A stretch of DNA of 64,000 nt from Octopus vulgaris (taxonomy: Eukaryota), in the NCBI GenBank assembly GCA_951406725.2, contig OX597823.1:37200001-37264000 (forward strand). The letters run 5' to 3'. Positions 2,468 through 55,998 of the stretch are shown one piece after another; position 1 is the stretch's first letter, and each line of letters opens with the position of its first letter. The notes under the pieces are model-generated. The model was given only the letters and a program-made list of their open reading frames with translations, was not told the DNA's origin and ran no database searches. The position numbers and the translations under genes are program-made.

Positions 2468-2515
2468 ATGTATGTGTGTGCATATATATATATATGTGTG
2501 TGTGTATATATATAC

Positions 2516-2551
<36 letters not shown>

Positions 2552-2850
2552 AATGAGATGTGGGAAGAGCCGTAAAATGCGACAACCGATGCAGATTTTG
2601 TGGAGTTAACGCTGAAAATGCCACCCATATCATAAGCACTGGTCCGAAAATGTCATCACGGTATAATCTACCGATGAGACGTGACGTTGTAGCTAGGACA
2701 TTCTCTAATGAGATCCATCGGAAGGATAATCCCGAGTACAAAGTGTTATATCGCACTTTCGGATGGCGTGCCTTCGCCAATAACGTACCTCTACTCAACT
2801 ACCGACTATTCGACTCAACAGAACGCGACGTCTAGTCTACCGACGGCTCC

Positions 2851-4550
2851 TGTTTCTTTATTATAACCACAAGTGCTCAAAATACAGGGGGACAAAGAAG
2901 GACAGACAGGACACCACAGAGGGGACAATACATAGAACGAATATGAGTGAAATGGTTATATAATAAGGAAATTATGAACGGCTGCTTGCGCCCCTCATCA
3001 CATGCGGTACCATTAATGTTGTTTACAGTCAATTATTACCGGATATTTAAATAACAATTAACTATCATGTAACATACCATTGCAAGTCACCAATCCGTGT
3101 ATTATCCGGCGTCCACATCGGATTCTTGACGTATTGTCTTTCCAATAAAACAATCTTATGACTCGCTATCCATTGACAGAGGTCTATCTGAAGGATAGTC
3201 CTTTATTAGCGGTATCACGTCATCCCAGTCGATTACTGGTTCCACCTTTTCAAACTCGACTTCAAACTGTACCATTTCCATATCGCACCTTTATTCCAAC
3301 TCCTCATAGCAGTTCGGTTCTATTATTATTGCTTTAGTCCCATCCTTGTCGTAATCCTTTTGGTACTCCACATAATACCATCTCTTCTTCGTCTAGTTTT
3401 CACTCCCTCCTTCATTCCTTTTTTTTTTCACCTCTCATCAACCTCACCTCCGGAGGAAAAACTTTCAAACTTTCCTCTTCTGTTTTTCTTGTCACCATTT
3501 TGTCTCGGTTACTTCCCACTGCCTCTTTTTTTCTTTTTCAACTTCTCCGGTGGAGAACCCCTTCTACCTTTTATTTTTCGCGGTTTCACCTCCACGAATT
3601 CCTCTTCTGTATCCACTGTTTCACTTCCTTCTCCACATCCCACCACGTTTGCCTCTCTATGCGTCGAACTCTCCTTCCTGTTTTTCCTTGCTTTGAGGAC
3701 AGTCCGCTTTTTTGTGTCCTCTTTTGCTACACAAAAAACATTTCAAAGGCCTGCCCTCTACCACCACATTCAGCTTGTATCCTTCGGGCAGTACTATTTC
3801 CTCAATTATGGAATTCAGATCTTCCAGGGTGGCTTGAATTTACATTTCCAGCCCGTATCACCCAGAAGTCTAACTTTTGAGTTCTTGTTGCCATTAATAT
3901 TGTCGGACTCTGTTTCATGTGGAACAAGACTGCCGCCATAATCCACGTCTCGTCGTATTCGGGTGGGATTTTACCCACCCTTACTCTGTCCATTCTTTTC
4001 CCGCAGTAACTCGGTAGGAAAGCCCACTCGTCATTCCTAATCGCGTTTACTGCATGCTCTGCTGCTACTTCTTCGGGTGCGAACCTGACTTCTACCATTT
4101 CGAACTTCTGACTTCTTGTTACAAAAGTCGTCAGGTGTTTAATATTTTTGAGTGTTTTTTCTATACTCGCAGTCGTTGAGGTTTCGATTTTTCCTGTGGA
4201 CAATCTTAAAGTCTTATACAGGACCGTTCTTTTTTGTAAACTTTCCAAAAATTTTTTTGGCGGTGCTGTTCCTTGATTCATTAACAATTTTCCACATTCT
4301 TCAATTCTGCCTGTTTCTACCTTTACTTTCTTCACTGTTAACGAGGCAGTATTGTTACTACCTGTTGCCGTCGCTGCATAGCTCTGGCTCGAGGTATTCA
4401 AATTCTCTATTATACAATTGAATAAAAAAAAACAGAAATATACAGGCACACCCGCTCAGGGAAAGCCTTCAATAATCAATCAGTAATAATTAATTCACAA
4501 TTAATTAACTTGTAACTCACAAAAATTAACTCGAACACTCTCTGACGGCT
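2851..4550 (-). mobile_element. ORF1-only (HAL1-like) Tx1/L1-derived retroelement, copy 1 (1700 bp, frameshifted)
   Basis: 15-bp TSD tctaccgacggctcc (2836-2850, 4551-4565); ORF1-like protein with SYAA, EVRF, LPSYCGKR..RVRVGKIPPE and knuckle CFLCSKRGHKKADC; AATAAA at the 3' end; no endonuclease or RT motifs seen. Confidence 0.8.
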
Positions 4551-4580
4551 TCTACCGACGGCTCCGACTCGCTCTACGCT

Positions 4581-6276
4581 TTCTCTTTATTATAGGCATA
4601 TAGCCTTCTTTATAGAATGGATATTACAAAGACAAACGTGGGGTATATAAAATGTTTAACGAATGAATTATAAAATGTGAAATTATGATAATGAAATGGC
4701 TTTCTACCCCCAAAGTAGAAAGCACCATTTTACTGTTTTTATACTTAATGCTTTTGTTCAGTATGTATTATATTTATATTGGATAAGGTATTAAGTCTGT
4801 ATACATTACCACTGGTGGCAATTCATCATATTGAAACCGCTTTCTTGTAATTTCCGCTCTGCTTCCAAATGTCACTTTTAGTCTTGCTGCTCTTTCGTTC
4901 TCAAGTAGCACTGCTTTCACAATACGGTTCTCTTCATTATCTACTAATTTCACTCTTATTACACCTTTCATTTTTGCTATACGCTTTTCCATTTCCACAC
5001 TTTTCTCGTACACCACAAACATTCGTTCATGTTTTCCTTTGCGTGGCTTTCTCGGCTGTATTTCTTCACTCTCTACTGGTGCTTCCATTTCTATTTGCTG
5101 TTCGTTTTCTTGTCTTTTCTGTCCTTCCTCCTCCTTACTCGTTGAAGGTTCCGGCTCTTGAGTTCGATTCTCCGTTGCTTCCTCATTTCTTCTTTTCTCT
5201 TTTTTCTTTTCCTCCGCCTTACTTTTTTTTTCGGGGGCGATTCGCTATTTCCTTTCTTCTCCACCAATGTGAACTCTATTTCCTTCTCCGATACTATATT
5301 CACTTCTATCTGATGCCCCTCCTCTACCACCTCTTGTTCGTGTTTCTGAGGACACTTTGCCTTCATGTGCCATCCCTACTCCCTATTGGAAGCATTATTG
5401 GTGGTCTACCCTCCACCATGACTCTCAGTCTGGTCTCATCGGGCAGGACTATCTCTTCTATCATTTTGTGGAGGTCAGGCAGCTGATAAGTACCATCACT
5501 TCTAGGCCATACCCCCACCAGTTCCTCCTCCTCCTCACTTCTAGGCCACACCCCCACCAGTTGACCTCCGCTGTCTTTGACATCTTTAACATCTCCGCCT
5601 TCTCCTCTGTATTGTAGAGGATGGCCGCCACAAGCCAGTCTTCGTCAATTTCGGGTGGCATTCTCCCTACCCTCACTCTGGCTGCGCCTCCGCCACAGCA
5701 AGTGGGCAAGAGTACCCACTGTGCCGGCCTCAAGGCTACGGTGGAGCACCTCCCCACTTCGTTCTCATTAACGAAGCGCACCTCCATCGCGCCAAACCCT
5801 CGTCCCCTGCTATAGAAAGTCGTCACTTCCGCAACTTCTCTCAAACACCCCTCCGCCTCCTCAATGCCTGCCACCTCAACCTTTCCCGTGTCTATGTTCA
5901 GCGCTCGGCAAGTGATCACTTTCCTTTCCGACCTCTCTGCTATTTCTTTGGGTGGTGCTAAACTCAAACACCCTCCTTCCCTCCTCAACAGGTCATCAAA
6001 ACTTTCTGCAATCAACATCCCTCACTTCCAGCTCCTGCACTCGCAGTAGCTCCGCTGTCAGGCCCCTGCCCGTCACCGCAGTACAACTGCCCGTCTGGGT
6101 CGCGCGTTCACAATTCTGCCATTCACAGCTTCACCCATAAATGAGGAAGCCAAACAAGACTTTCAATGAATTCAAAAAATTACAAATTCAACAATCACAA
6201 TTTCCACAATTCAGCAGTTCAGTTACACAAAGCAACAACTCACATGTGAGTGAGATCAAGACACAAAAAATCGGCC
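4581..6276 (-). mobile_element. ORF1-only (HAL1-like) Tx1/L1-derived retroelement, copy 2 (1696 bp, frameshifted)
   Basis: 9-bp TSD ctctacgct (4572-4580, 6277-6285); paralogous to copy 1 (EVRF, RVRVGRMPPE, IEEIVLP..VEGRP, ..GHMKAKC); AATAAA at the 3' end; 39-bp internal tandem duplication at ~5497-5562. Confidence 0.8.
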
Positions 6277-7045
6277 CTCTACGCTATGCTTCCCGTCTAG
6301 CTATCACGTCCACTGTTTATACGTATTAGATTAGTCTACTTATCGTCTGGGAGCGTCCATACAACACAAAGAAATAAGAATCCACAATATGGTAGAAGCC
6401 ATAGCCACTCATAATAAAAAAAGGAGCACTGGTGAAATGTACCAGTGAAGACCTCAATAAAATGTAAGCACAACAGGCCTGATATAATGATTTGGGACAG
6501 AGAAGAGAAACTGTGCACAGTTGTGGAAATTAGCTGCCCAGCAGATGTTAATGCAAAGCTGAAGATCAGTGAAAATGAGAATACCTACATTGAACTATTG
6601 AGAAATCCGCAGTCACTCTATCCAGATTACAAGTTCAGTTTTATAGCTGTAATTATTGGGGGCCTGGGATATGTAGAACACACTGCCTAAATACTAATCT
6701 TGAGAAATTAGGCTTCTCAAAACCAGAAAGATGAAAACTAATTCAAAGACTACAGATCCAATCCATTACTGGAACTGTAAAAATCAGTAAAATTTTCCAG
6801 GAGTTTACCATTTAAATATGTATGAGCATGTCTAGATATGCAACTATATGCATGAGAATACATACATAACATAAAACATACAAATCAGCACATACATACA
6901 TTCATACATACATACATACATACATACATACATACATACATACATACATACATACATACACAAACACACATACATACATACATACATACATACATACATA
7001 CATACATACATACATACATACATACATACATACATTAAAAAAAAA

Positions 7046-7362
7046 GGAGCACTCCGTCGGTTACGACGACGAGGGTCCCAGCTGATACGATCAACGGAAC
7101 AGCTTGCTCGTGGAATTAACATGCAAGTGACTGAGCAATCCACAGACACGTGTACCCCTAACGTAGTTCTCAGGGAGATTCATCGTGACACAGAGTGTGA
7201 CAAGGCCGGCCCTTTGAAATACAGGTACAACTCATTTTTGCCAGCTGAGTGGATTGGAGCAACGTGAAATAAAGTGTCTTGCTCAACACAACGCATCGCC
7301 GGGAATCGAACTTACGACCTTACAATCGTCGGTCGAATGCCCTAACCACTAAGCCACGCACC
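7046..7362 (-). mobile_element. tRNA-derived SINE, family A
   Basis: A box TGGCTTAGTGG, B box GTTCGATTC, body ttgagcaagacacttt..; homologous to 18248-18577 and 41452-41712; inserted in (ATAC)n. Confidence 0.9.
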
Positions 7363-7821
7363 ATCACATACATACATACATACATACAAAAATACCCTGT
7401 TGTTGATGTTGAAATTCCAATGAAGGAGCCTTGGATCTAGGTTTGAAACCGGTTCTTTCTCTATTGACAAGAAATCTTGAAATAAACTGAATAATGATAT
7501 GCATACATACATACATACATACATGCATACATACATACATACATACATACATACATACATACATACATACATACATACATACATACATACATACATACAT
7601 ACATACATACATTCTGAAGCACCTTATCCAAGGAGAGATTTGTCTTAATCTCGTTGTGCTATGAAACTAGATTTAAGCACCACCTATCCTTACGGTGCAG
7701 GAAATGTATATTTAAACGTATGTGTGCGTGTGTATTCAGCAGCTTCCGTGCTTGCTCCTTACAAATAAAATACAATATTACGAAAAAACTCTAACAATAA
7801 TCTATACCCTAAACCGCGTAG

Positions 7822-13524: not shown

Positions 13525-14176
13525 AACATCAGAGATTCAGTTTTTCTTTTTTTTTCTTATTTGTCAGAAAAAGATTAGGATTACAGGATTTAAAGCTTTA
13601 TTTTAATGTGTGCGTTTAAGAACATAATTTATTTTTTCATATTTATTTCGTTTGCATTTGCTGTGTATAAGTTTAAATTTTTTTTTTCATCCTTGATAAA
13701 CTCTAACAACAGAATTTCGCATTTTCCTAACATGAAACTGAAGACTAATGCTTTCAACATTGAATTCACTTGGCTTTCGTTATTATGAAAACTAATACAG
13801 CTCTTTACAAGATACTGAAGTTGTGTACCAATGTAATTAATATAGAATAATATAATATACATATATAACATAGAAATAATATAATAATATAGTATAAATA
13901 TAGAAATAATATAAAATGTAATAACATAATAATAATCGTTTTGTGCTAAAAATATTGAATGACATGCAGCAGTATAGAATCACCAAGACTTCGCTTTTAA
14001 GAATATCGACGAAACTTCAATGTGGGACGCAGCACCACGAATGACCGCAGAATCGCCAATGCAAATAAAGTACCATCTTTCTCTAAGACACGACATTGCT
14101 GCACAAATTATTTACGTTACCCGTAGGAAGGCCCAACCAGATGGTTTTATTTCAGGCACATTAGAAGCAGAATGTC

Positions 14177-14415
14177 TTTTTTTTTTCCTTACTACCCAAA
14201 AGGGGCTAAATACAGAGGGGACAAACAAGGACAGACAAAGATATTAAGTTGATTACATCGACCCTAGTGCGTAACTGGTACTTAATTTATCGACCCCGAA
14301 AGGATGAAAGGCAAAGTCGACCTCGGCGGAATTTGAACTCGGAACGTAATGACAGATGAAATACGGCTACGCATTTCGCCCGTCGTGCTAACGTTTCTGC
14401 CAGCTCGCCGCCTTT
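14177..14415 (-). mobile_element. tRNA-derived SINE, family C, with Tx1-like 3' tail
   Basis: Head ggcggcgagctggcagaaacgttagc, B box gagttcaaatt, core ttcatcctttcggggtcgataaattaagtaccag, poly(A); TSD gaagcagaat(g/a)tc at 14164-14176 and 14418-14430. Confidence 0.9.
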
Positions 14416-15203
14416 TGGAAGCAGAATATCATTCACAACTTTAAAAATACGAAATACTAATGGAACCTTCCCCCCAAAAAAAAAACTACAATTTGATGCA
14501 AGCATAAGAGGGATACGAACCAGGACCGATAGACTGTGGTAGAGGACAATAATGTAGTGGATATAAATTTATCGTCTGGTGTTGTTGCGAAAGAATTTAT
14601 GGAATAAACGCGGAAATCATAATTCTTGTTTACCAGATCTAGAGCTTCATAGATCGGCATAAAAGCCTTGAAATGATTGGATTTTTAAAGAAAGAATAAA
14701 GCTAACAGATTTACATCCCTAAATGTGATTGATTTGTGGTAAAGGGAAATTGGTTAAATATTTCAGAGACTATTTTAGTTCGCTTAGAAAGAAATGTGTG
14801 TACACCATGCTATGTGCTTATGGCCTACACATATGCAGCCATATCTTGAAGAGGTACGCACTTCTATATTTCATGAGCACATATACATCCATACACACTC
14901 CTTCATATAAAGACAGGCTAATTCGCATATTCACAAAACTGTCTTGACCCAAAGTAAAACGCCCTGTCACTGTGTTAATGACCGGCTGGAATTCTATGAA
15001 GAATCTAAATATATTTGAAAGAAAAACGTACATAAACAAATACATACTTAGACGTATATACATTTATGTATGACGGTATAACTGCATGAATGTGTGTCTG
15101 TTTGTATATATGTATACACGTATATTTTTGTGAATACGTATCTATGTGTGAGTATAATATATATACATATATGTATATATATATATACATGTATAATACA
15201 TAT

Positions 15204-19766: not shown

Positions 19767-22700
19767 GAGGTCGCTCTTGAGCGCTACTGGTAACATGTAA
19801 CTGAATACAACCTGTGGCATGGGCGGGTCGTCGGCGACTAAAGTGACAACATCCAAGTTTGCTGAGGAGGGTGATTGTTGGACAGCCTGCAGGACGAAAA
19901 ATAAGACCTCACAAAGCAAAAACCCAATAGACATTCCCCTTCCCAATCCAAACCGCTCAGACCTTTCGAGTGCTGAGGTCGAGAAGTGATGGCGCACAGT
20001 CGCCACAAAAAAAAAAGATGAAGAAAAACTGCAGAACCATCAAAAGTGGGGAGGCGCAAGCAGGTCGAGCCACCCAACAGCAGTAATACTCACACACACA
20101 CAACAACCAACAACAGCACCAACACCAGCACCACTTTCACCAGCACTACCACCTCAAACACTGACAACAGTATAAACACCAACATACTCCACAAGCACTA
20201 CCAACCTCATAGCCATAGACACTAATAATGCAGAACTAATCACGCGCCTTAAAAATCACACAGACACTACCATGGAAAACTTTGTTTTCTCTATACACAA
20301 CGTACCATCACCATACATATAAATACTAAAAATAAGCGAAAACGTCTACAACACATTAAAAACACAATTCCTAGACGCTGTTATGTCGTTTCAAAAAGTT
20401 TTTTGCAAAAAGCTGTACAAAAGTCTACTCGTAGGAACACCTGCATCAAAGAATGTGGAGGCCATCCCACTACAAAACAGCGGTAAGTAACTCTTTCCTT
20501 AATTGTAATTTTTTTCTCAACATGGTCTTGCTCAAGATTGGTTGTTTAAATGCTCGGGGCCTCGAGTCACCTTGGAAACAAGGTCACCGACCTGAGGTCC
20601 CTTAGTGTAAACGTAGTAGCTATTAGTGAAACCAGACTTTCCGAACCGCAGGCCTTCATGACCCTCTTCGCTGGATACAAAATCTACCTATCTCTGTGTC
20701 TTCCGGGAGGGGGCGGTGATGGTACTGTAGTGCTTTTCCGGAAAGGTCTGGATTTGAAAATAAAAGCAATCTTACTGTATCCAGAAGGTAAGTTGGTGGT
20801 CCTGGATGTGAACAGCTGTGACTGCGCGCCTTCAGACTAGTGGCTGTCTATGGTCCGACTGAGGCAGGACGGCCGGATAACTTCAAGTGTCTGGAGGTTT
20901 TCCTGGGAATATCTCGAATTTTAGTGTTAGTAAGGGATTGGAACACTTAGATGGACGTTTCGATTGCGTGGGACTATCTGATAGGAGAGGGAGTGCAAAA
21001 GCCTCACAAACCTGCTCAGACATTTCCAACTGTCTGACAGGTAAAGACTAGAATACTTGAATGTGCCAATGTGTACTTGCACAAATCGCATCGGGTCATC
21101 TTGTTCGTATTTAGATAGAGTTTTTCCTGTAGGTTAGCGGATAAGGATAGCATAGGTTGTTCACATTTTCACATGGTCGGCAACACAGACCACAAATTCA
21201 TGATCTGTACGGTCAACCTAGATATGCTTCGTAGACAGGGCCCCGGTTACTGGAAGCTCAACATGTCGTTACCGGCGTGCCAAGCTTACAGTAACTGGAT
21301 TAGCGTATTAGTTAAGAGGACGTTGACGGGGGAAATCGGCAACAACAACTGGTGGTTTGTTCTTAAAAGGGCAATTAGAGTAGAATCCATTAGGTTTAGT
21401 AAGGCTTTAGCGGTAGAAAGAAATAGAATAGAGTGAGATTTAGTTAGAAAGTTAGATGAGGCACTTAGGAAAGGCATCGCAACTGACGTATTGGTGGCAA
21501 GGTTGGTCCTCGAACAATTTTTCGGCGCCATACACGAAGGCTCTGTTGTTAGAGCTAAGGCACGTTCACTAAGCGGAAAGGGAACGAAAGCTGCTCGATG
21601 GAACTTAGTGGTGGATGCAAAATGTGGCAACACTGCTACCATTCGGCCTTTGGTAGACAAGAACGGACGCGATATGTTTGAACCGAAGCAGATGTGTGCG
21701 GCTTTTCAACAGCACTTTGCTCGACTGTTCGGGACGAGTGGTAGAACAGGTAAGAGGGCAGATTTCGGTGTCTACCTGGACGGCCTACCGTTACTCTCAG
21801 CGAGCGAGTTGAAGCGCTGCGAAAGGCCGATAACAGCCGCGGAAATATAGGAAGCGATGAAGTGCTGCACGAGAGGCAGATCGTCGGGATTGGATGGTCT
21901 GCGCTACGAACTTTATATTTCGATGCCAGACTTGTTTGGAGGCATCTTAGCAAATATCTACAGAAACTAGCAGCAGAATGGGAGAATTCCCAGTTTTGTC
22001 TATCGAGGGATGGCGGCACTGCTAAGAAAGGACCAAAACAAGGGAGACATTATACAAAATTTCAGGTCCATCACTCTGCTCAATGCAGAGTTGAAGATTT
22101 TGGCCAAGGTGTTAGCCAAGAGGTTGGCGCTTGTTGTGGACAAGCTGATTGACGAGGCGCAACCATGCGCCATCCCGACCAGACTATTCGCGACAACCTC
22201 CACCTCATGCGCTGCATCATAGAGAAGATGGGTAACGAAGCTGGCATGGGTGGGGATCTGATCAATTTAGATCAATCTAAAGCCTTCGATAGGGTCGACC
22301 ACCAATATTTGGCGGCTGTTCTCGCGGCAGCCGGTTCAGTTTTCCGCGTTGGATCACTGTCGAAACAGCGTCGTTGGGCGCTGGACAGACGGTCTAGTTA
22401 AATTACTCGGGGTCTGGTTCGGTCCAGATTTCCAGGTAGAGAAAGACAAAGAGAAGGTGACGAACAGGATAGCCAATCTCACCTAGAAATGGGCCGAGAG
22501 GAAGCTGTCCCTGAAAGGTCGAGCCGAGGTGGCGAATGCGTACGTCACATCCATCTTCTATTACTGCTTGACCGTCGTCTCTAGCTCTTTATTTTAACTG
22601 AATAAGCTAGTCCGCATTATCTTCGGCTTTTTGTGGAGGAGTCATGTTCTGCTGGTAAGGCGCTCCATCTGCTGTCAACAGCCGCTGAATGGGGTCCTAA

Positions 22701-23450
22701 ACATGCTGTGATTGCTGATACGCAGAGATGCGCTCAGGCTACATCTCCAGCGTTTCCTTGACGGTGAGTAGGTGTGGTCACCGTTTGTTAGACTCGCTCT
22801 CCCACAACTCGTCTCTTTGACTGAGCTTCAATCCTGGATTAGGCACAAACCTATGAGGGGCGCTTGTCACCTCGAGTGCCATCAAGCGCTCACAATCCTC
22901 CGCCAGGCGAGCAATGCGGTCGGTGGTAGTTCTACTCTAGCGTTCTATAGAGGGTTAAAGGAGAAAAAGTAAGACGACGTTCTCGGGGAAACTCTGGGTG
23001 TCGATGAAGATGAACTCACCAGCCTGCTCCGGAGGACTTTCGGGACGGAGCCTATGGATAACTTCCAGAAATTCCTCGCCTGGTCGTTCTACCGAGGGGT
23101 GCTGCCCGTTCGGGATAAATTTTACAGGCACGGAAGTGCCGTCAGCCGGAACTACTCGAGATGTACGCAGACGGACGAAACCGTTCTACACGCACTCGTC
23201 CTGTGCCCGAGGATTGCTGACCTGCGGGTTTATGTCGAACACCTGCTGTCGCCTGTGGGGCGTATCCGGCTATCAGCTGAATCCATAGTGAAGGTTTCCC
23301 CGCCATCTTCCTTTGGTCGGGAGGGGCAGGCAAATTTTATTTGTCTAGCGGCTGTAGCAAATGAGGGAGTATGGTGGACATGTTTGAAGGGGCTAAAGAC
23401 AGACACTTTCCTCTTTGGCCAAGGCCTCATAAACGCGGCCATTCTTTTTT
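19767..23450 (+). mobile_element. Decayed Tx1/L1-clade LINE (ORF1 remnant, APE endonuclease, partial RT, C-terminal Cys/His domain)
   Basis: ORF2 starts MVLLKIGCLNARGL at 20522; AISETRL, SYLDRV, TDHK, GPGYWKLN; NFRSITLLNAELKILAKVLAKRL; DQSKAFDRVDH; RCTQTDETVLHALVLCP; many stops and frameshifts; YADD region deleted near 22360. Confidence 0.92.
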
Positions 23451-23689
23451 CTTAAGCAGGATGGGAACGGTTTCGCAATAGCGTGTCGGAAAATAGGAAA
23501 ATTCGAGTTGAATGACGCTAAGGTGCATTTAACAAAGACTGGTAGAACAGCTTTCATTAACACACCGGAAGAAGTGCAAGAAGACACTAAGAAGAAAATC
23601 ATTATATATAAATGTATATAATTAAAGACGAGGAGCATGCACAGGTAACACACCCGAGAAAAAGTAAAACACCTACACCACCGTAATCT

Positions 23690-37538: not shown

Positions 37539-37690
37539 GCACACACACATACACACACACACACATACATACATTATTTTAAAAAACAAACACACACATA
37601 CACACACGTACATACATACATACATACATACATACATACATACATACATACATACATACATACATACATACATACATACATACATACATA

Positions 37691-38312
37691 AAAAGGAGTA
37701 CAGATAGAATGTTCCAGTGAAGACCTCAATAAAATGTAAGCACAACAGACTTGATGTAATGATTTGGAAGAGAGAAAATTCGCTGCTCAGCGGATGTTAA
37801 CATAAGGTTGAAGATCAGTGAAAAAGAGAACACCTATGCTGAACTATTGAGAAATTTGCAGTTACTCTATCCAAATTACAAGTTCGGGTTTATACCTGTA
37901 ATTATTGGGCCCTCGAATATGTAACACACTGCCTTAATACTAATCTTGAGAAATTAGGCTTCTGAAAGCCAGAAAGGAGAAAGCTAATTCGAAGACTACA
38001 GATCCAATCCATCACTGGAACTGTAAAAGTCTGTAAAACTTTCGAGAGGTTTATCATTTAAATATATATGAACATGTCTAGATATGTAACAATATGCGTG
38101 AGAATACATACATAAAGCAAAACATACAAATCTGCATGCATACATACATACATACATACATACATACATACATACATACATACATACATACATACATACA
38201 TACATACATACTCTGTTGATGTTGAAATTCCAATGAAAGAACCTTGGATCTAGGTTAGAAACCGGCTCTTTCTCTATTGGCAAGAAATCTTGATATGAAA
38301 CTGAATAATGTC
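37691..38312 (+). mobile_element. 5'-truncated RLE-LINE, same family as 2548-7500
   Basis: ccagtgaagacctcaataaaatgtaagcacaacag.., shared 3' end, internal (ATAC)n and identical-type 3'UTR; flanked by (ATAC)n. Confidence 0.88.
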
Positions 38313-51519: not shown

Positions 51520-51603
<84 letters not shown>

Positions 51604-54600
51604 TCTTGCTTTAACTGGCCACAAGGGCCGAACACAAAAACATATAGGGACGATATAAAACAAGGGACAAGCGAGGTGTAAAACAGAAATCGTGTAGACA
51701 ATAAAAAGCAAAAATAGTTAACAAAAAATCTAACACCAAAATTCCTCAATCGGGGAGGGGTTCCACCCAGGACCAACCAGGGCATCCCACACATCCTGGT
51801 CACCCCGACTGCCAATGGCACGCCAAGTAGGCACTCCTCTTCCCTTCAACTGCCCCGGGTTACAGGCGAACATTCAGAATAACCCCTTTCAGACGAGCCA
51901 TTTTCGCAACATTCACCCACTTTTCAACAAAATTACTGGAGGAGCAGTACTTCTCTCTCTACTCTCACTTTCCTTTTCAAGTTCCACTTAAAAAAGCCGA
52001 TGAGGACTCGACCGAATATGAAAGTGTCTGTCTTCAGTTCTTTCAGCCACACTACCTCTTTCGCTATAGCCACCAGACAGAGAAAAACTGCCTTTCCCTC
52101 CCGGCTAAAAGAAAGCGGCGGGGCAATCCTCCAGATGGACTCAATTAAGAACCGGATCCGTTCTACACGAGACATCAGGTGTTAGACAAAGCTCCACAAG
52201 TCAGTAATGGACGAGTGCACGCAGAACAGTTTTATCACCCTGCGCACACCTCGGACAGGTCTGTCTAACAGCACTTCTGTGTCTGTACAGCTTTCTCGAA
52301 ACCGACAGAGCTCCCCAGAGATTTCTGGAAATTGTCCAAAGCCCGAGATTTCTGGAAATTGTCCAAAGCCCGAGCCCGAAAGTCCTCCCGAAAAGAGCAA
52401 TTAACTGATCCCTCCCGACGCCCAGACTTTCCCTGAAAATGTCGTCGTTCTTGTCTGCCACTAATCCCTAATAGAACTCTATAGCGGAACATCTACCGAC
52501 CGCGTTGCCCGACTGGTAGAAAGCTATGAGCGCTTGCCTATACTCCAGGTACCAAGTGCCCTTTCTTTGTCTACGTTTGACCCAGGTCTGTAGCTCCATC
52601 AATGAGACGAGCTGTGGAAAATCCCGTTTGATGAACGGTGACCACACCTGCCCACCGCTAAGAAAAAAGCTAGAGATGTCGCAGCCTCAACATAAGTCTG
52701 TGCATCGTTTGCCACGACATGCCCAGTCCTCCACTTAGCAAATGGACCGTCTGACGAAGAGAATACACCCGTTCCACAGAAATTGAACGAGTAAGCACAC
52801 CAGCTTGATCAGCCACAAAGTGGAGCAAAGGACGACAGCCAGGTGGTAGTAGATGACAGAAGCGATGTACGCACTTGCCACCTCTGCCCGACCCTTCAAG
52901 GACAGCTTCTTCTCTGCCCATTTCTGGATGAGATTGGTTACCCTGCTCGTCACCTACTCTCAGTACTTGTCCACCTGGGGGCCGGGGCCAAACCGGACCT
53001 CGAGCAATTTAACCGGTCCTTCTGTCCGACGCCCGACAACGTTGTTGGTTGGCATGGACTTGCCTCTCCAGGTGCCAAGCTGCAGGCCTAGCGACTTCTG
53101 GTTAATCTTTGCTCCTGTCACTGCTTCGTACTCCCTTAGGGCAGTACCGACCACCTCGATTTCCGAGATGTCTAACACTATTACAGTAACCTCGTCCGCA
53201 TAAGCCGACACGAACTGTCCTAGATGCCCCTCGAAACATCCAGCTTCCGCAGCAATGGCTCTAGAGCCAGTGCGTACAGAAGAGGTGAGAGTGGACATCT
53301 TTCTCAACAGCACCACCTCTCCAAGACTCACAGCACTGGGAATTCCCCCGTTCTGCTGCCAGTTTTGGTAGAGATCTGTCAAGAGATCACCGAACAAGCC
53401 TAGCATATGAAGATAAAGCTCGAAGGGCTGACCATCCCGACCCAGAGACTTCTCTCTTGCGCAGCTCGTCATCGCGTCCCGTATATCTTCGGCTGTTATT
53501 GACATTTCGCAGAACTCTGTATCCCTGGCTGAGAGGTTCGGCGTGCCACGGAGATAAAATCCATCTCCATCCCAGGACCACCGCACGCCCCATACAGTTC
53601 GGTGAAGTGTCGCTGAAATTCCGCACACATGTCGGAATAACTCGGTTATCATGCACTTCTCACAGCTTTTCAGGTGTTGGTGTAGGTTCATTTGTTTACT
53701 TTTTCTTTTGTTACGTTTTTGTTTTTGCTTTGTAAGGTTCGTCCTCATCTTCACTACAAGTTGAGGAGGGACTAGTGTCTGTAAGATCTGTCTTGGGGAG
53801 TGTGAGTGTGTTTGTGATAGTGTAAGAGTGTTTGTGTGAGTGTATGCTTGAGAGGAGGTGAGGGAGCTGGTTTGAGAGACACCCTGGGTGGTTTGTTCCA
53901 TTGTATGGGGCTCACGTGCCTCTGTCGTTGTTAGAGATGAGGCTACAGTTTTGTTAAAAATCTCTGTTGTTGCTGTTGTTGGGGATGTAATGTAGGCTGC
54001 ACGTGCAGCCATGCACCTCCCAACTTTTGTGGAGCAGAGGGCTCTCAAGTGACTTGTGGCCCTACAGATATCGCATCTGGGCTTCCAGCCGTTCACAACG
54101 AACTGCAGTTCCACCTCTTTGGAGCAGCTGGATCAGGTCCGGGGTGTTCTTGATATTTTCTGGTCTTACATGGATTAATATTTCCATATTTATCCCAAAC
54201 GCGTCTCCCTGCTGCTCCTTTTTACCTCCAAGAATTACTCTGGATCTTGCACACAAGCTACAATCCACCAGACGTTATCCTAACCTTAATCGTTCTCTTT
54301 GAGAGGTAGGTGGGATACAGGACCCACTCTTCAGTCCACCGGGGTGACATTGCGTGTCTTCGCGTGAGGTCCTTACTTTTAACGAGGACCTTGATGCTGG
54401 CGAACTGCGTCCCTCTCTGTATATGGGACCACATCTATTAAAATTACTTTTAGGGCTTTCTCAACGTGACTGATGGAGGTGATTTCTGCTTGATAGGCAT
54501 CTAAAAATAGACGGTCTTTTTTTCTGTTGTCGCTATTATTTCGGGAGGTATGAGCACTGCTGCTGTCACTGCTACTACTGCTGTCACTGCTACTACTGCT

Positions 54601-55033
54601 GTTGTCGATGCTACCACTGCTGCTGCTACTGCTACCGCCTTCATTGTTGCTGATGCGAGGTGAACTTTGTACATTTTCCCCCTGTTTTCTCCACTCCTTC
54701 TCCTGTATTATTGTTGTCAGTAAAAGAGGAAAGAGGATGGAAAGCTTCGGCAGTCAATAGACCTGCAGGAGGGGCAGTTTTCTTTCGTAACTCTTTCAAG
54801 ATAGGCGCCACCATCTTGTTGAATTTTATATGATTAAACGCCGAATGACTTATTTGTGTGGGGCGGGGGACGACTATAGCTCTGCGTGGGGCCAAATAAA
54901 CATAGAAACCTAGTGACAGGTTCCTGTTGTTTCTATTGATAACTTTGAACAAAATTATAACAGAAAAAAGCGGCACCAAACGGGTGTGCCTTACTTCGAG
55001 CGTTTGAAAACACGTCCGATGTACTCCGCAGCA
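51604..55033 (-). mobile_element. Internally deleted Tx1/L1-clade LINE with both ends, inserted in (AAT)n
   Basis: ORF1: EEWVLYPTYLSKRTIKVRI and knuckle CDICRATSHLRALC; ORF2 pieces KSLGRDGQPFELY, SAYADEVTV, TGAKIN, WAEKKLSLKGRAEVA, CPRCAQGDKTVLRAL; (AAT)n at 51521-51603 and from 55034. Confidence 0.9.
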
Positions 55034-55269: not shown

Positions 55270-55308
<39 letters not shown>

Positions 55309-55929
55309 AATGGTGAAACCGTATGGCATATTGGCATATTACCATTCAATGTACGCCACGAGCCCAGAAAAAATATAAGAGACGTCATGACAAAATAGCA
55401 AGGATTGTCCACTGAACACTTTGCAACAAGTATAGACTTGACAGAGCAAAAAAGTGGTACGAACATAAACCCGAAGGCATCATCGAAAACGATAACGCAA
55501 AGATCCTATGGGATTTTTATGATTCAGTGTGACCGTGAGATAGAGAATAGGAAACAAGAGAAAGAAAGAAAACGATGCTGGCTCATAGATATAGCATTCC
55601 CAGCTGACAAGGTATACGATAAGTAAGAAAGAAAAGTCGATAGATATAACAGGTTAGCTTGGGAGGTTAAGCAGTTGAGGTCGCTGAAAAAGGTGGTAGT
55701 AGTACCAATAATTGTGGGAGCCCTGGGAACAGTGATTAAAAATCTTGAGAAGTACATGGAACAAACAGGGGCTGCAATAAGGGTGAGACACTTGCAGAAA
55801 ACAGCACTGCAGAAAACAGCTCGAATACTTCGGATGGTGCTCGAAAAATAAGGGGGTGTAACTTTAGTTCACTGGTAGTGAACAGCTGACACCGTGGTAC
55901 ATCTCCAGCGTTAGAAGCTGTGCAAAGAC

Positions 55930-55930
<1 letters not shown>
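55309..55930 (+). mobile_element. R4/Dong-like RLE LINE 3' fragment
   Basis: GETVWHI..RRHDKIARIVH..KILWDFM..CWLIDIAFP..RKVDRYNRLAWEV..VVPIIVGALG..LQKTA. Confidence 0.85.

Positions 55931-55998
<68 letters not shown>

Follow-up and report, generated by a model that had tools for sequence, protein, structure and literature searches.

Two ORF1-only LINE derivatives nested in a likely solo LTR of Octopus vulgaris, and the case for a preferred insertion site

The DNA studied here (the window) is a 64,000-nucleotide stretch of the Octopus vulgaris genome, and it contains a nest of mobile elements at 2557-6830. The outermost of these is an RLE-type LINE on the plus strand that has been split in two. 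Its left piece (2557..2743), found at very high contig depth, has a CxxC/RHD-like region (zf-RVT, E 0.037) and closes with ...DNPEYK, and its right piece (6367..6830) resumes with EIRIHNMVEA at 6371 and runs into a (CATA)n tail. The right piece includes RPDI...CTVVEISCP, which we take to be an RLE-type motif. Further 3' fragments of RLE-type LINEs occur at 880-1497, 37690-38076, and 55300-55940, the second of which shows 81% identity with this right piece.

Comparison of the junctions resolves the interruption into two further layers. An exact 5-bp direct repeat, CAAAG (TSD0), ends the left piece of the host LINE at 2739-2743 and opens the right piece at 6367-6371. Inside it lie three parts of a short element, namely a 107-bp left piece (2744..2850), a 30-bp target stretch (4551..4580), and a right piece (6277..6366). 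These are separated by two inserts, E1 (2851..4550; 1700 bp) and E2 (4581..6276; 1696 bp), both on the minus strand. E1 is flanked by an exact 15-bp repeat (TSD1; 2836-2850 and 4551-4565) and E2 by an exact 9-bp repeat (TSD2; 4572-4580 and 6277-6285), which extends to 11 bp if one mismatch is tolerated. The target stretch thus consists of the second copy of TSD1, a 6-bp gap (4566-4571), and the first copy of TSD2. Once E1 and E2 are removed, 107+15+81 = 203 bp remain. The preliminary description had stated that excising the ORF1-only inserts restores a TGTTA..CAACA element of ~203 bp with a CAAAG duplication, that excising this element in turn restores the host LINE frame (DNPEYK/EIRIHNMVEA), and that E1 and E2 share an orientation with duplications 6 bp apart. 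All of this is borne out by the coordinates above, and host LINE copies without the insert are also seen in contigs of public runs.

Those contigs came from 4 of 24 public runs, carrying three species labels, and were aligned to 2560-6830; the alignment rows listed comprise 15 of 398 joints, 12 of 236 rows with letters between the aligned parts, and 24 of 2888 loose ends. A joint from 2737 to 6366, which represents the host LINE without any insert and skips 3628 positions (the insert plus one TSD), is present in all four runs (8, 4, 6, and 9 contigs). The 203-bp element without E1 and E2, seen as a joint from 2850 to 6277, is likewise present in all four (2, 1, 1, and 1 contigs), and run X1 has an additional, diverged empty element with a joint from 2845 to 6297. 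The junction from the E1 5' end across the middle stretch to the E2 3' end is crossed by a contig in three of the four runs among the rows listed (X1, X4, and X5, with 0-2 other letters). Because junction contigs and empty copies both occur in public runs, we conclude that the locus is real; an assembly artefact is rejected, as the junction contigs come from three runs and the runs from three species labels, although X1 is possibly the source sample. The order of insertion, read from the duplications, is the host LINE, then the 203-bp element, then E1 and E2.

The 203-bp element is most likely a solo LTR, judging by its ends and its duplication. Target site duplications of LTR retrotransposons are 4-6 bp long, and the 5-bp CAAAG repeat is within this range. 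The AATAAA signal is well conserved in the LTRs of animal Metaviridae; no AATAAA or ATTAAA was found on either strand of the three element pieces (one copy examined), and the single TATAAA (minus strand, 6316-6321) precedes TSD2 by 36 bp. The element begins with TGTTATA and ends with TACAACA, matching at 7 of 8 positions as an inverted repeat with little further match. These ends agree with the consensus TGTTRNR...YNYAACA given for the short inverted LTR ends that integrase recognizes and, in either orientation, with the start (TGTTRKR) and end (MYAYAACA) given for the Mag A type (PMC3601003). A DNA transposon or MITE of the Ginger1/Ginger2 type was rejected, as the inverted match stops after ~8-10 bp, there is no long TIR, and the TSD is 5 bp, whereas Ginger elements are described with TIRs of ~40-270 bp and mostly a 4-bp TSD, 5 bp being given only for TDD-4/5 (PMC2836005). 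A TRIM or SINE head derived from a small RNA is not supported either: across 2500-7400, where the element was scanned in its interrupted form, there was no tRNA-, 5S-, or snRNA-type Rfam match and no tRNA according to ARAGORN.

The element is clearly not single-copy; the preliminary description had stated that a single-copy sequence would refute targeting. Summed contig depth at 6335 is ~29-44x that of single-copy-like near-exact contigs, a rough ratio rather than a true copy number, and suggests ~30-45 copies. The window holds no second copy of the element or of E1 or E2. An 18-mer from the element had no match in viral contigs, and a 17-mer occurred at 18 metagenomic loci, each of which matched the 17-mer alone and so reflects chance. 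Scans for related loci returned no relative in metagenomes or viral contigs.

E1 and E2 derive from L1-group LINEs but have ORF1 alone, a HAL1-like design. Both have decayed, broken, ORF1-like reading frames and an AATAAA close to the 3' end, with no poly(A). The CCHC knuckle is intact in E1 (CX2CX4HX4C) and frameshifted in E2, which also has a small C-terminal domain. Across the aligned piece the two proteins share 32% amino acid identity, and we therefore treat them as separate families; the similarity of their tails is weak (44 of 1000 shuffles reach it). Among representatives clustered at 50% identity, 196 relatives of the E1 piece reach E<=0.001, with E values down to 2e-30. Reverse transcriptase (RT) or endonuclease domains were found in none of the 21 relatives scanned (from 150 listed, picked mostly by length and score) and knuckle-type Pfam matches in 4. 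The predicted fold of the E1 ORF1 (pLDDT 79.5) retrieved mostly RRMs with Foldseek, including human L1 ORF1p, none of them at E<=0.001. A tblastn search with four ORF2 proteins (E<=10) gave 51 HSPs, none starting within 2700-6400. Limited word-index protein searches, one using the E1 piece and one comparing its alignment with longer proteins, gave no match, and a protein atlas returned eukaryotic clusters at 0.90-0.91, which we regard as a lead only.

Depth at the positions checked suggests ~7-26 copies, or some 10-25 for each insert family; site-preferring elements commonly have few copies. Part of the E1 3' UTR (2846-3131) has very high contig depth (16806 at 2979 in X1), and this sequence is also present in some high-copy repeat. 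One contig in each of the four runs skips 4608-4680, 73 bp of the E2 3' UTR, and defines an E2 subfamily; in X1 this contig has the same depth as the E2-E2 tandem-junction contig described below. Pieces of the ORF1 family are also fused to predicted host proteins in four gene models (P0005, P0021, P0089, and P0093, with WD40, LDL-receptor A, astacin, and in one case no Pfam match), most likely because these elements have contaminated the gene models.

Two autonomous LINEs of the window carry this ORF1 family as well, in each case ahead of RT remnants. The first is a decayed, near full-length L1/Tx1-type LINE on the plus strand (19800-23450), in which the end of ORF1 is followed by endonuclease, RT, and zf-RVT remnants; the family match, with protein P0009, is at 20.2-20.5 kb (E 1e-12), with the endonuclease/RT remnants falling within 19.8-23.4 kb. 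The start of another ORF1 of this family follows directly (23433-23618). The second, on the minus strand at 51600-55030, is internally deleted and has (AAT)n on both sides, so it possibly belongs to a microsatellite-preferring family; here the family profile matches at 54.3-54.4 kb (E 1.3e-13), upstream of RT remnants within 51.6-55 kb. Both of these relatives sit outside any 203-bp element. P0154, a 69%-identical relative of the first ORF2, matched human L1 ORF2p at E 4e-50, versus E 4e-24 for R2, in a PDB search. Tx1 is a plausible clade name for the LINE group of E1 and E2, given the 80 L1-Tx1 families that a supplementary table of the 2026 O. vulgaris repeat paper lists for this species. 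A SINE at 14174-14417, with a 10-bp TSD (14164-14173 and 14418-14427) unrelated to the target of E1 and E2, has in its 3' tail a 30-bp motif in common with the E1 3' UTR (2880-2908; 93%), and this score was reached in 0 of 1000 shuffles. The very high depth noted above for part of the E1 3' UTR falls outside this motif. The shared tail suggests that the SINE may depend on the same LINE group as E1.

In favor of targeting, two unrelated low-copy families have inserted with the same orientation into one 30-bp stretch of a repeat that has a few dozen copies. A chance pile-up that the scan happened to single out has to be considered, as nested LINEs and SINEs crowd the window. With O. vulgaris figures, a crude model of random insertion predicts 0.014-0.5 same-strand pairs of L1-Tx1 insertions <=30 bp apart inside any LTR element genome-wide, all L1-Tx1 fragments counted, and with such an expectation the single locus would be insufficient evidence without a second E2 junction. 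Restricting the expectation to 40 x 203 bp lowers it to <2e-4, a post hoc figure that argues against chance. The preliminary description had also pointed to the sequence TCTAC in both duplications. It is indeed present in both, but it occurs four times in the 203-bp element, and of 17321 random draws of a 15-mer and a 9-mer from the element, 1457 (8%) have a 5-mer in common; at that chance level we reject the shared TCTAC as stand-alone evidence of targeting.

More telling is a second E2 junction. One X1 contig (depth 253.6, ~3.8x the single-copy level) runs from the 5' end of E2 (6274) through 21 unaligned letters to the 3' end of E2 (4582). The spacer has 9 contiguous bases in common with the TSD2 site and the same terminal ACGCT before the E2 tail. 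A 9-mer in common with the insertion-site stretch occurs in only 105 of 120556 21-mers of the window (chance ~0.001), which further weighs against a chance pile-up, an explanation that we judge very improbable. The spacer letters were reported as aligning to neither side and were thus not selected for likeness to the element. The spacer exceeds TSD2 in length and so does not simply copy the present locus; its extra bases make it resemble TSD1 more. The head-to-tail contig points to a second E2 insertion at the same target sequence, and, given the TSD1-like extra bases, E1 and E2 insertions both appear to occur where one shared degenerate motif ends. The tandem junction was seen in one run (X1) among the rows listed, where the loose ends are all those of the host LINE. 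By the criterion of Kojima (PMC4494074), a Tx1 family counts as target specific when >20% of its flanks are one repeat type. Here, both readable E2 3' junctions and the sole readable E1 junction are at this site, about three junctions among the rows listed. The flanks of other ORF1-only copies, whose inspection had been suggested at the outset, could thus be read for one further junction, the E2-E2 junction of X1, and it fits targeting.

The preliminary description had proposed that the two families target this LTR. The multi-copy nature of the repeat and the X1 junction agree with that proposal, but any targeting would belong to the ORF2 of a helper, as the inserts have no endonuclease. Target choice by non-LTR elements is set mainly by the endonuclease (PMC4494074), and since E1 and E2 are ORF1-only, targeting must come from such a helper. 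With this amendment, we lean toward targeting of the 203-bp element by E1 and E2. Counting against it are the small number of readable junctions, the weak tail similarity of E1 and E2, and the positions of the two autonomous relatives and the tail-sharing SINE, which all lie elsewhere. We propose that both inserts were likely placed in the likely solo LTR by target-primed reverse transcription, with an L1/Tx1-type ORF2 protein borrowed from a helper whose endonuclease likely favors a short motif there, and we give this reading a probability of about 0.6. The 15- and 9-bp duplications are of a size typical of target-primed reverse transcription. The 30-bp stretch holds a degenerate TCTAC..GAC..GCT motif twice, at whose end the helper would nick, and each new insertion would regenerate the site, allowing tandem insertions such as the head-to-tail E2 of X1. 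The site preference is probably partial rather than absolute.

The helper endonuclease might instead favor a short GC-rich motif anywhere in the genome, of which the element merely carries two, so that the LTR as such would not be the target. The likeness between the TSD1 and TSD2 sites is short and degenerate, and a common SINE of the window has the core 8-mer of TSD1 at its end as well (7054, minus strand). However, we estimate this 8-mer match to be near chance level, and the tandem spacer agrees with precisely this site over 9 contiguous letters and again in the terminal ACGCT; we consider preference for the motif alone rather unlikely.

E1 begins with 10 nt (4541-4550) that duplicate part of its own target sequence, a point in favor of a founder or hitchhiking effect. 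If a master copy residing in the element was transcribed with a few 5' target bases, later copies and dimers could carry those bases or pair with them, and no specific endonuclease would be needed. The tandem spacer could then be a 5' extension rather than a TSD, and 5' extensions of this kind are described for SINEU-2 (PMC4494074). Such hitchhiking would nevertheless require two unrelated founders (32% protein identity) to have hit the same 30 bp, and the junctions differ between the two E2 loci, so we regard it as decidedly unlikely. Under the preferred reading, in which a helper endonuclease chooses the site, E1 could, more speculatively, still be transcribed from the host repeat, as has been suggested for SINEU-2: its first 10 nt are target-like, and a TATAAA with the same orientation is found upstream. 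These 10 nt are accounted for equally well by an artefact that second-strand synthesis left at the junction. A bolder version would see layered hyperparasites of cephalopods, in which several anciently diverged ORF1-only families share an LTR-targeting Tx1/L1 helper, insert just downstream of the LTR TATA box in its direction, use the LTR promoter (which would account for the 10 nt of E1), and accumulate as tandem arrays within LTRs; we think this unlikely.

The arrangement of E1 and E2 is no new kind of system. In crocodilians, Tx1-8_Crp and Tx1-4_AMi are described as preferring specific LTR retrotransposons (Kojima 2015, PMC4494074); they resemble E1 and E2 in their L1/Tx1-group machinery and their preference for specific LTRs, but they are reptile Tx1 families placed by RT phylogeny, whereas E1 and E2 have no RT, come from an invertebrate, and are known from few readable junctions. 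The same paper describes a non-autonomous SINEU that rides Tx1-Mar into a Mariner element and tandem SINEU-3 copies that sandwich a TSD in the target transposon (PMC4494074). The SINEU-3/Tx1-Mar pair in Mariner-N4_AMi resembles our locus in that a passenger inherits the target of its helper inside another transposon, with TSD-sandwiching tandems, a TSD of ~16 bp, and possible transcription from the host repeat; SINEU-3, however, is an snRNA-derived, non-coding passenger with a DNA-transposon target, whereas E1 and E2 code for ORF1 and have an LTR-like target. The HAL1 (half-L1) elements of mammals are non-autonomous LINE derivatives that, like E1 and E2, encode only ORF1p (PMC5753468), but they derive from mammalian L1 and are described there with no sequence-specific target, whereas E1 and E2 have a CCHC-type ORF1 of a different family and no poly(A). 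Tx1 of Xenopus laevis, which inserts into Tx1D (PMC4494074), is also a LINE living inside another transposon; unlike E1 and E2, it is autonomous, and its target is a piggyBac-type DNA transposon.

LTR-preferring Tx1 families and ORF1-only LINEs are thus each already known, and in the sources consulted we did not find their combination in print. The open-licence literature yielded no report of cephalopod elements that are ORF1-only and prefer LTRs. The 2026 O. vulgaris repeat paper makes no mention of "nested" in its main text or supplement, nor of "target" or "solo" in its main text. If the preference holds, it would extend LTR-preferring Tx1/L1 machinery from crocodilians to an invertebrate, and protein-coding half-LINEs would be able to ride such machinery. 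It would also lengthen the short list of natural endonuclease specificities and account for low-copy repeats that are probably broken up by automatic annotation. Finally, these elements would offer a test case for why an element should retain ORF1 in cis but borrow ORF2.
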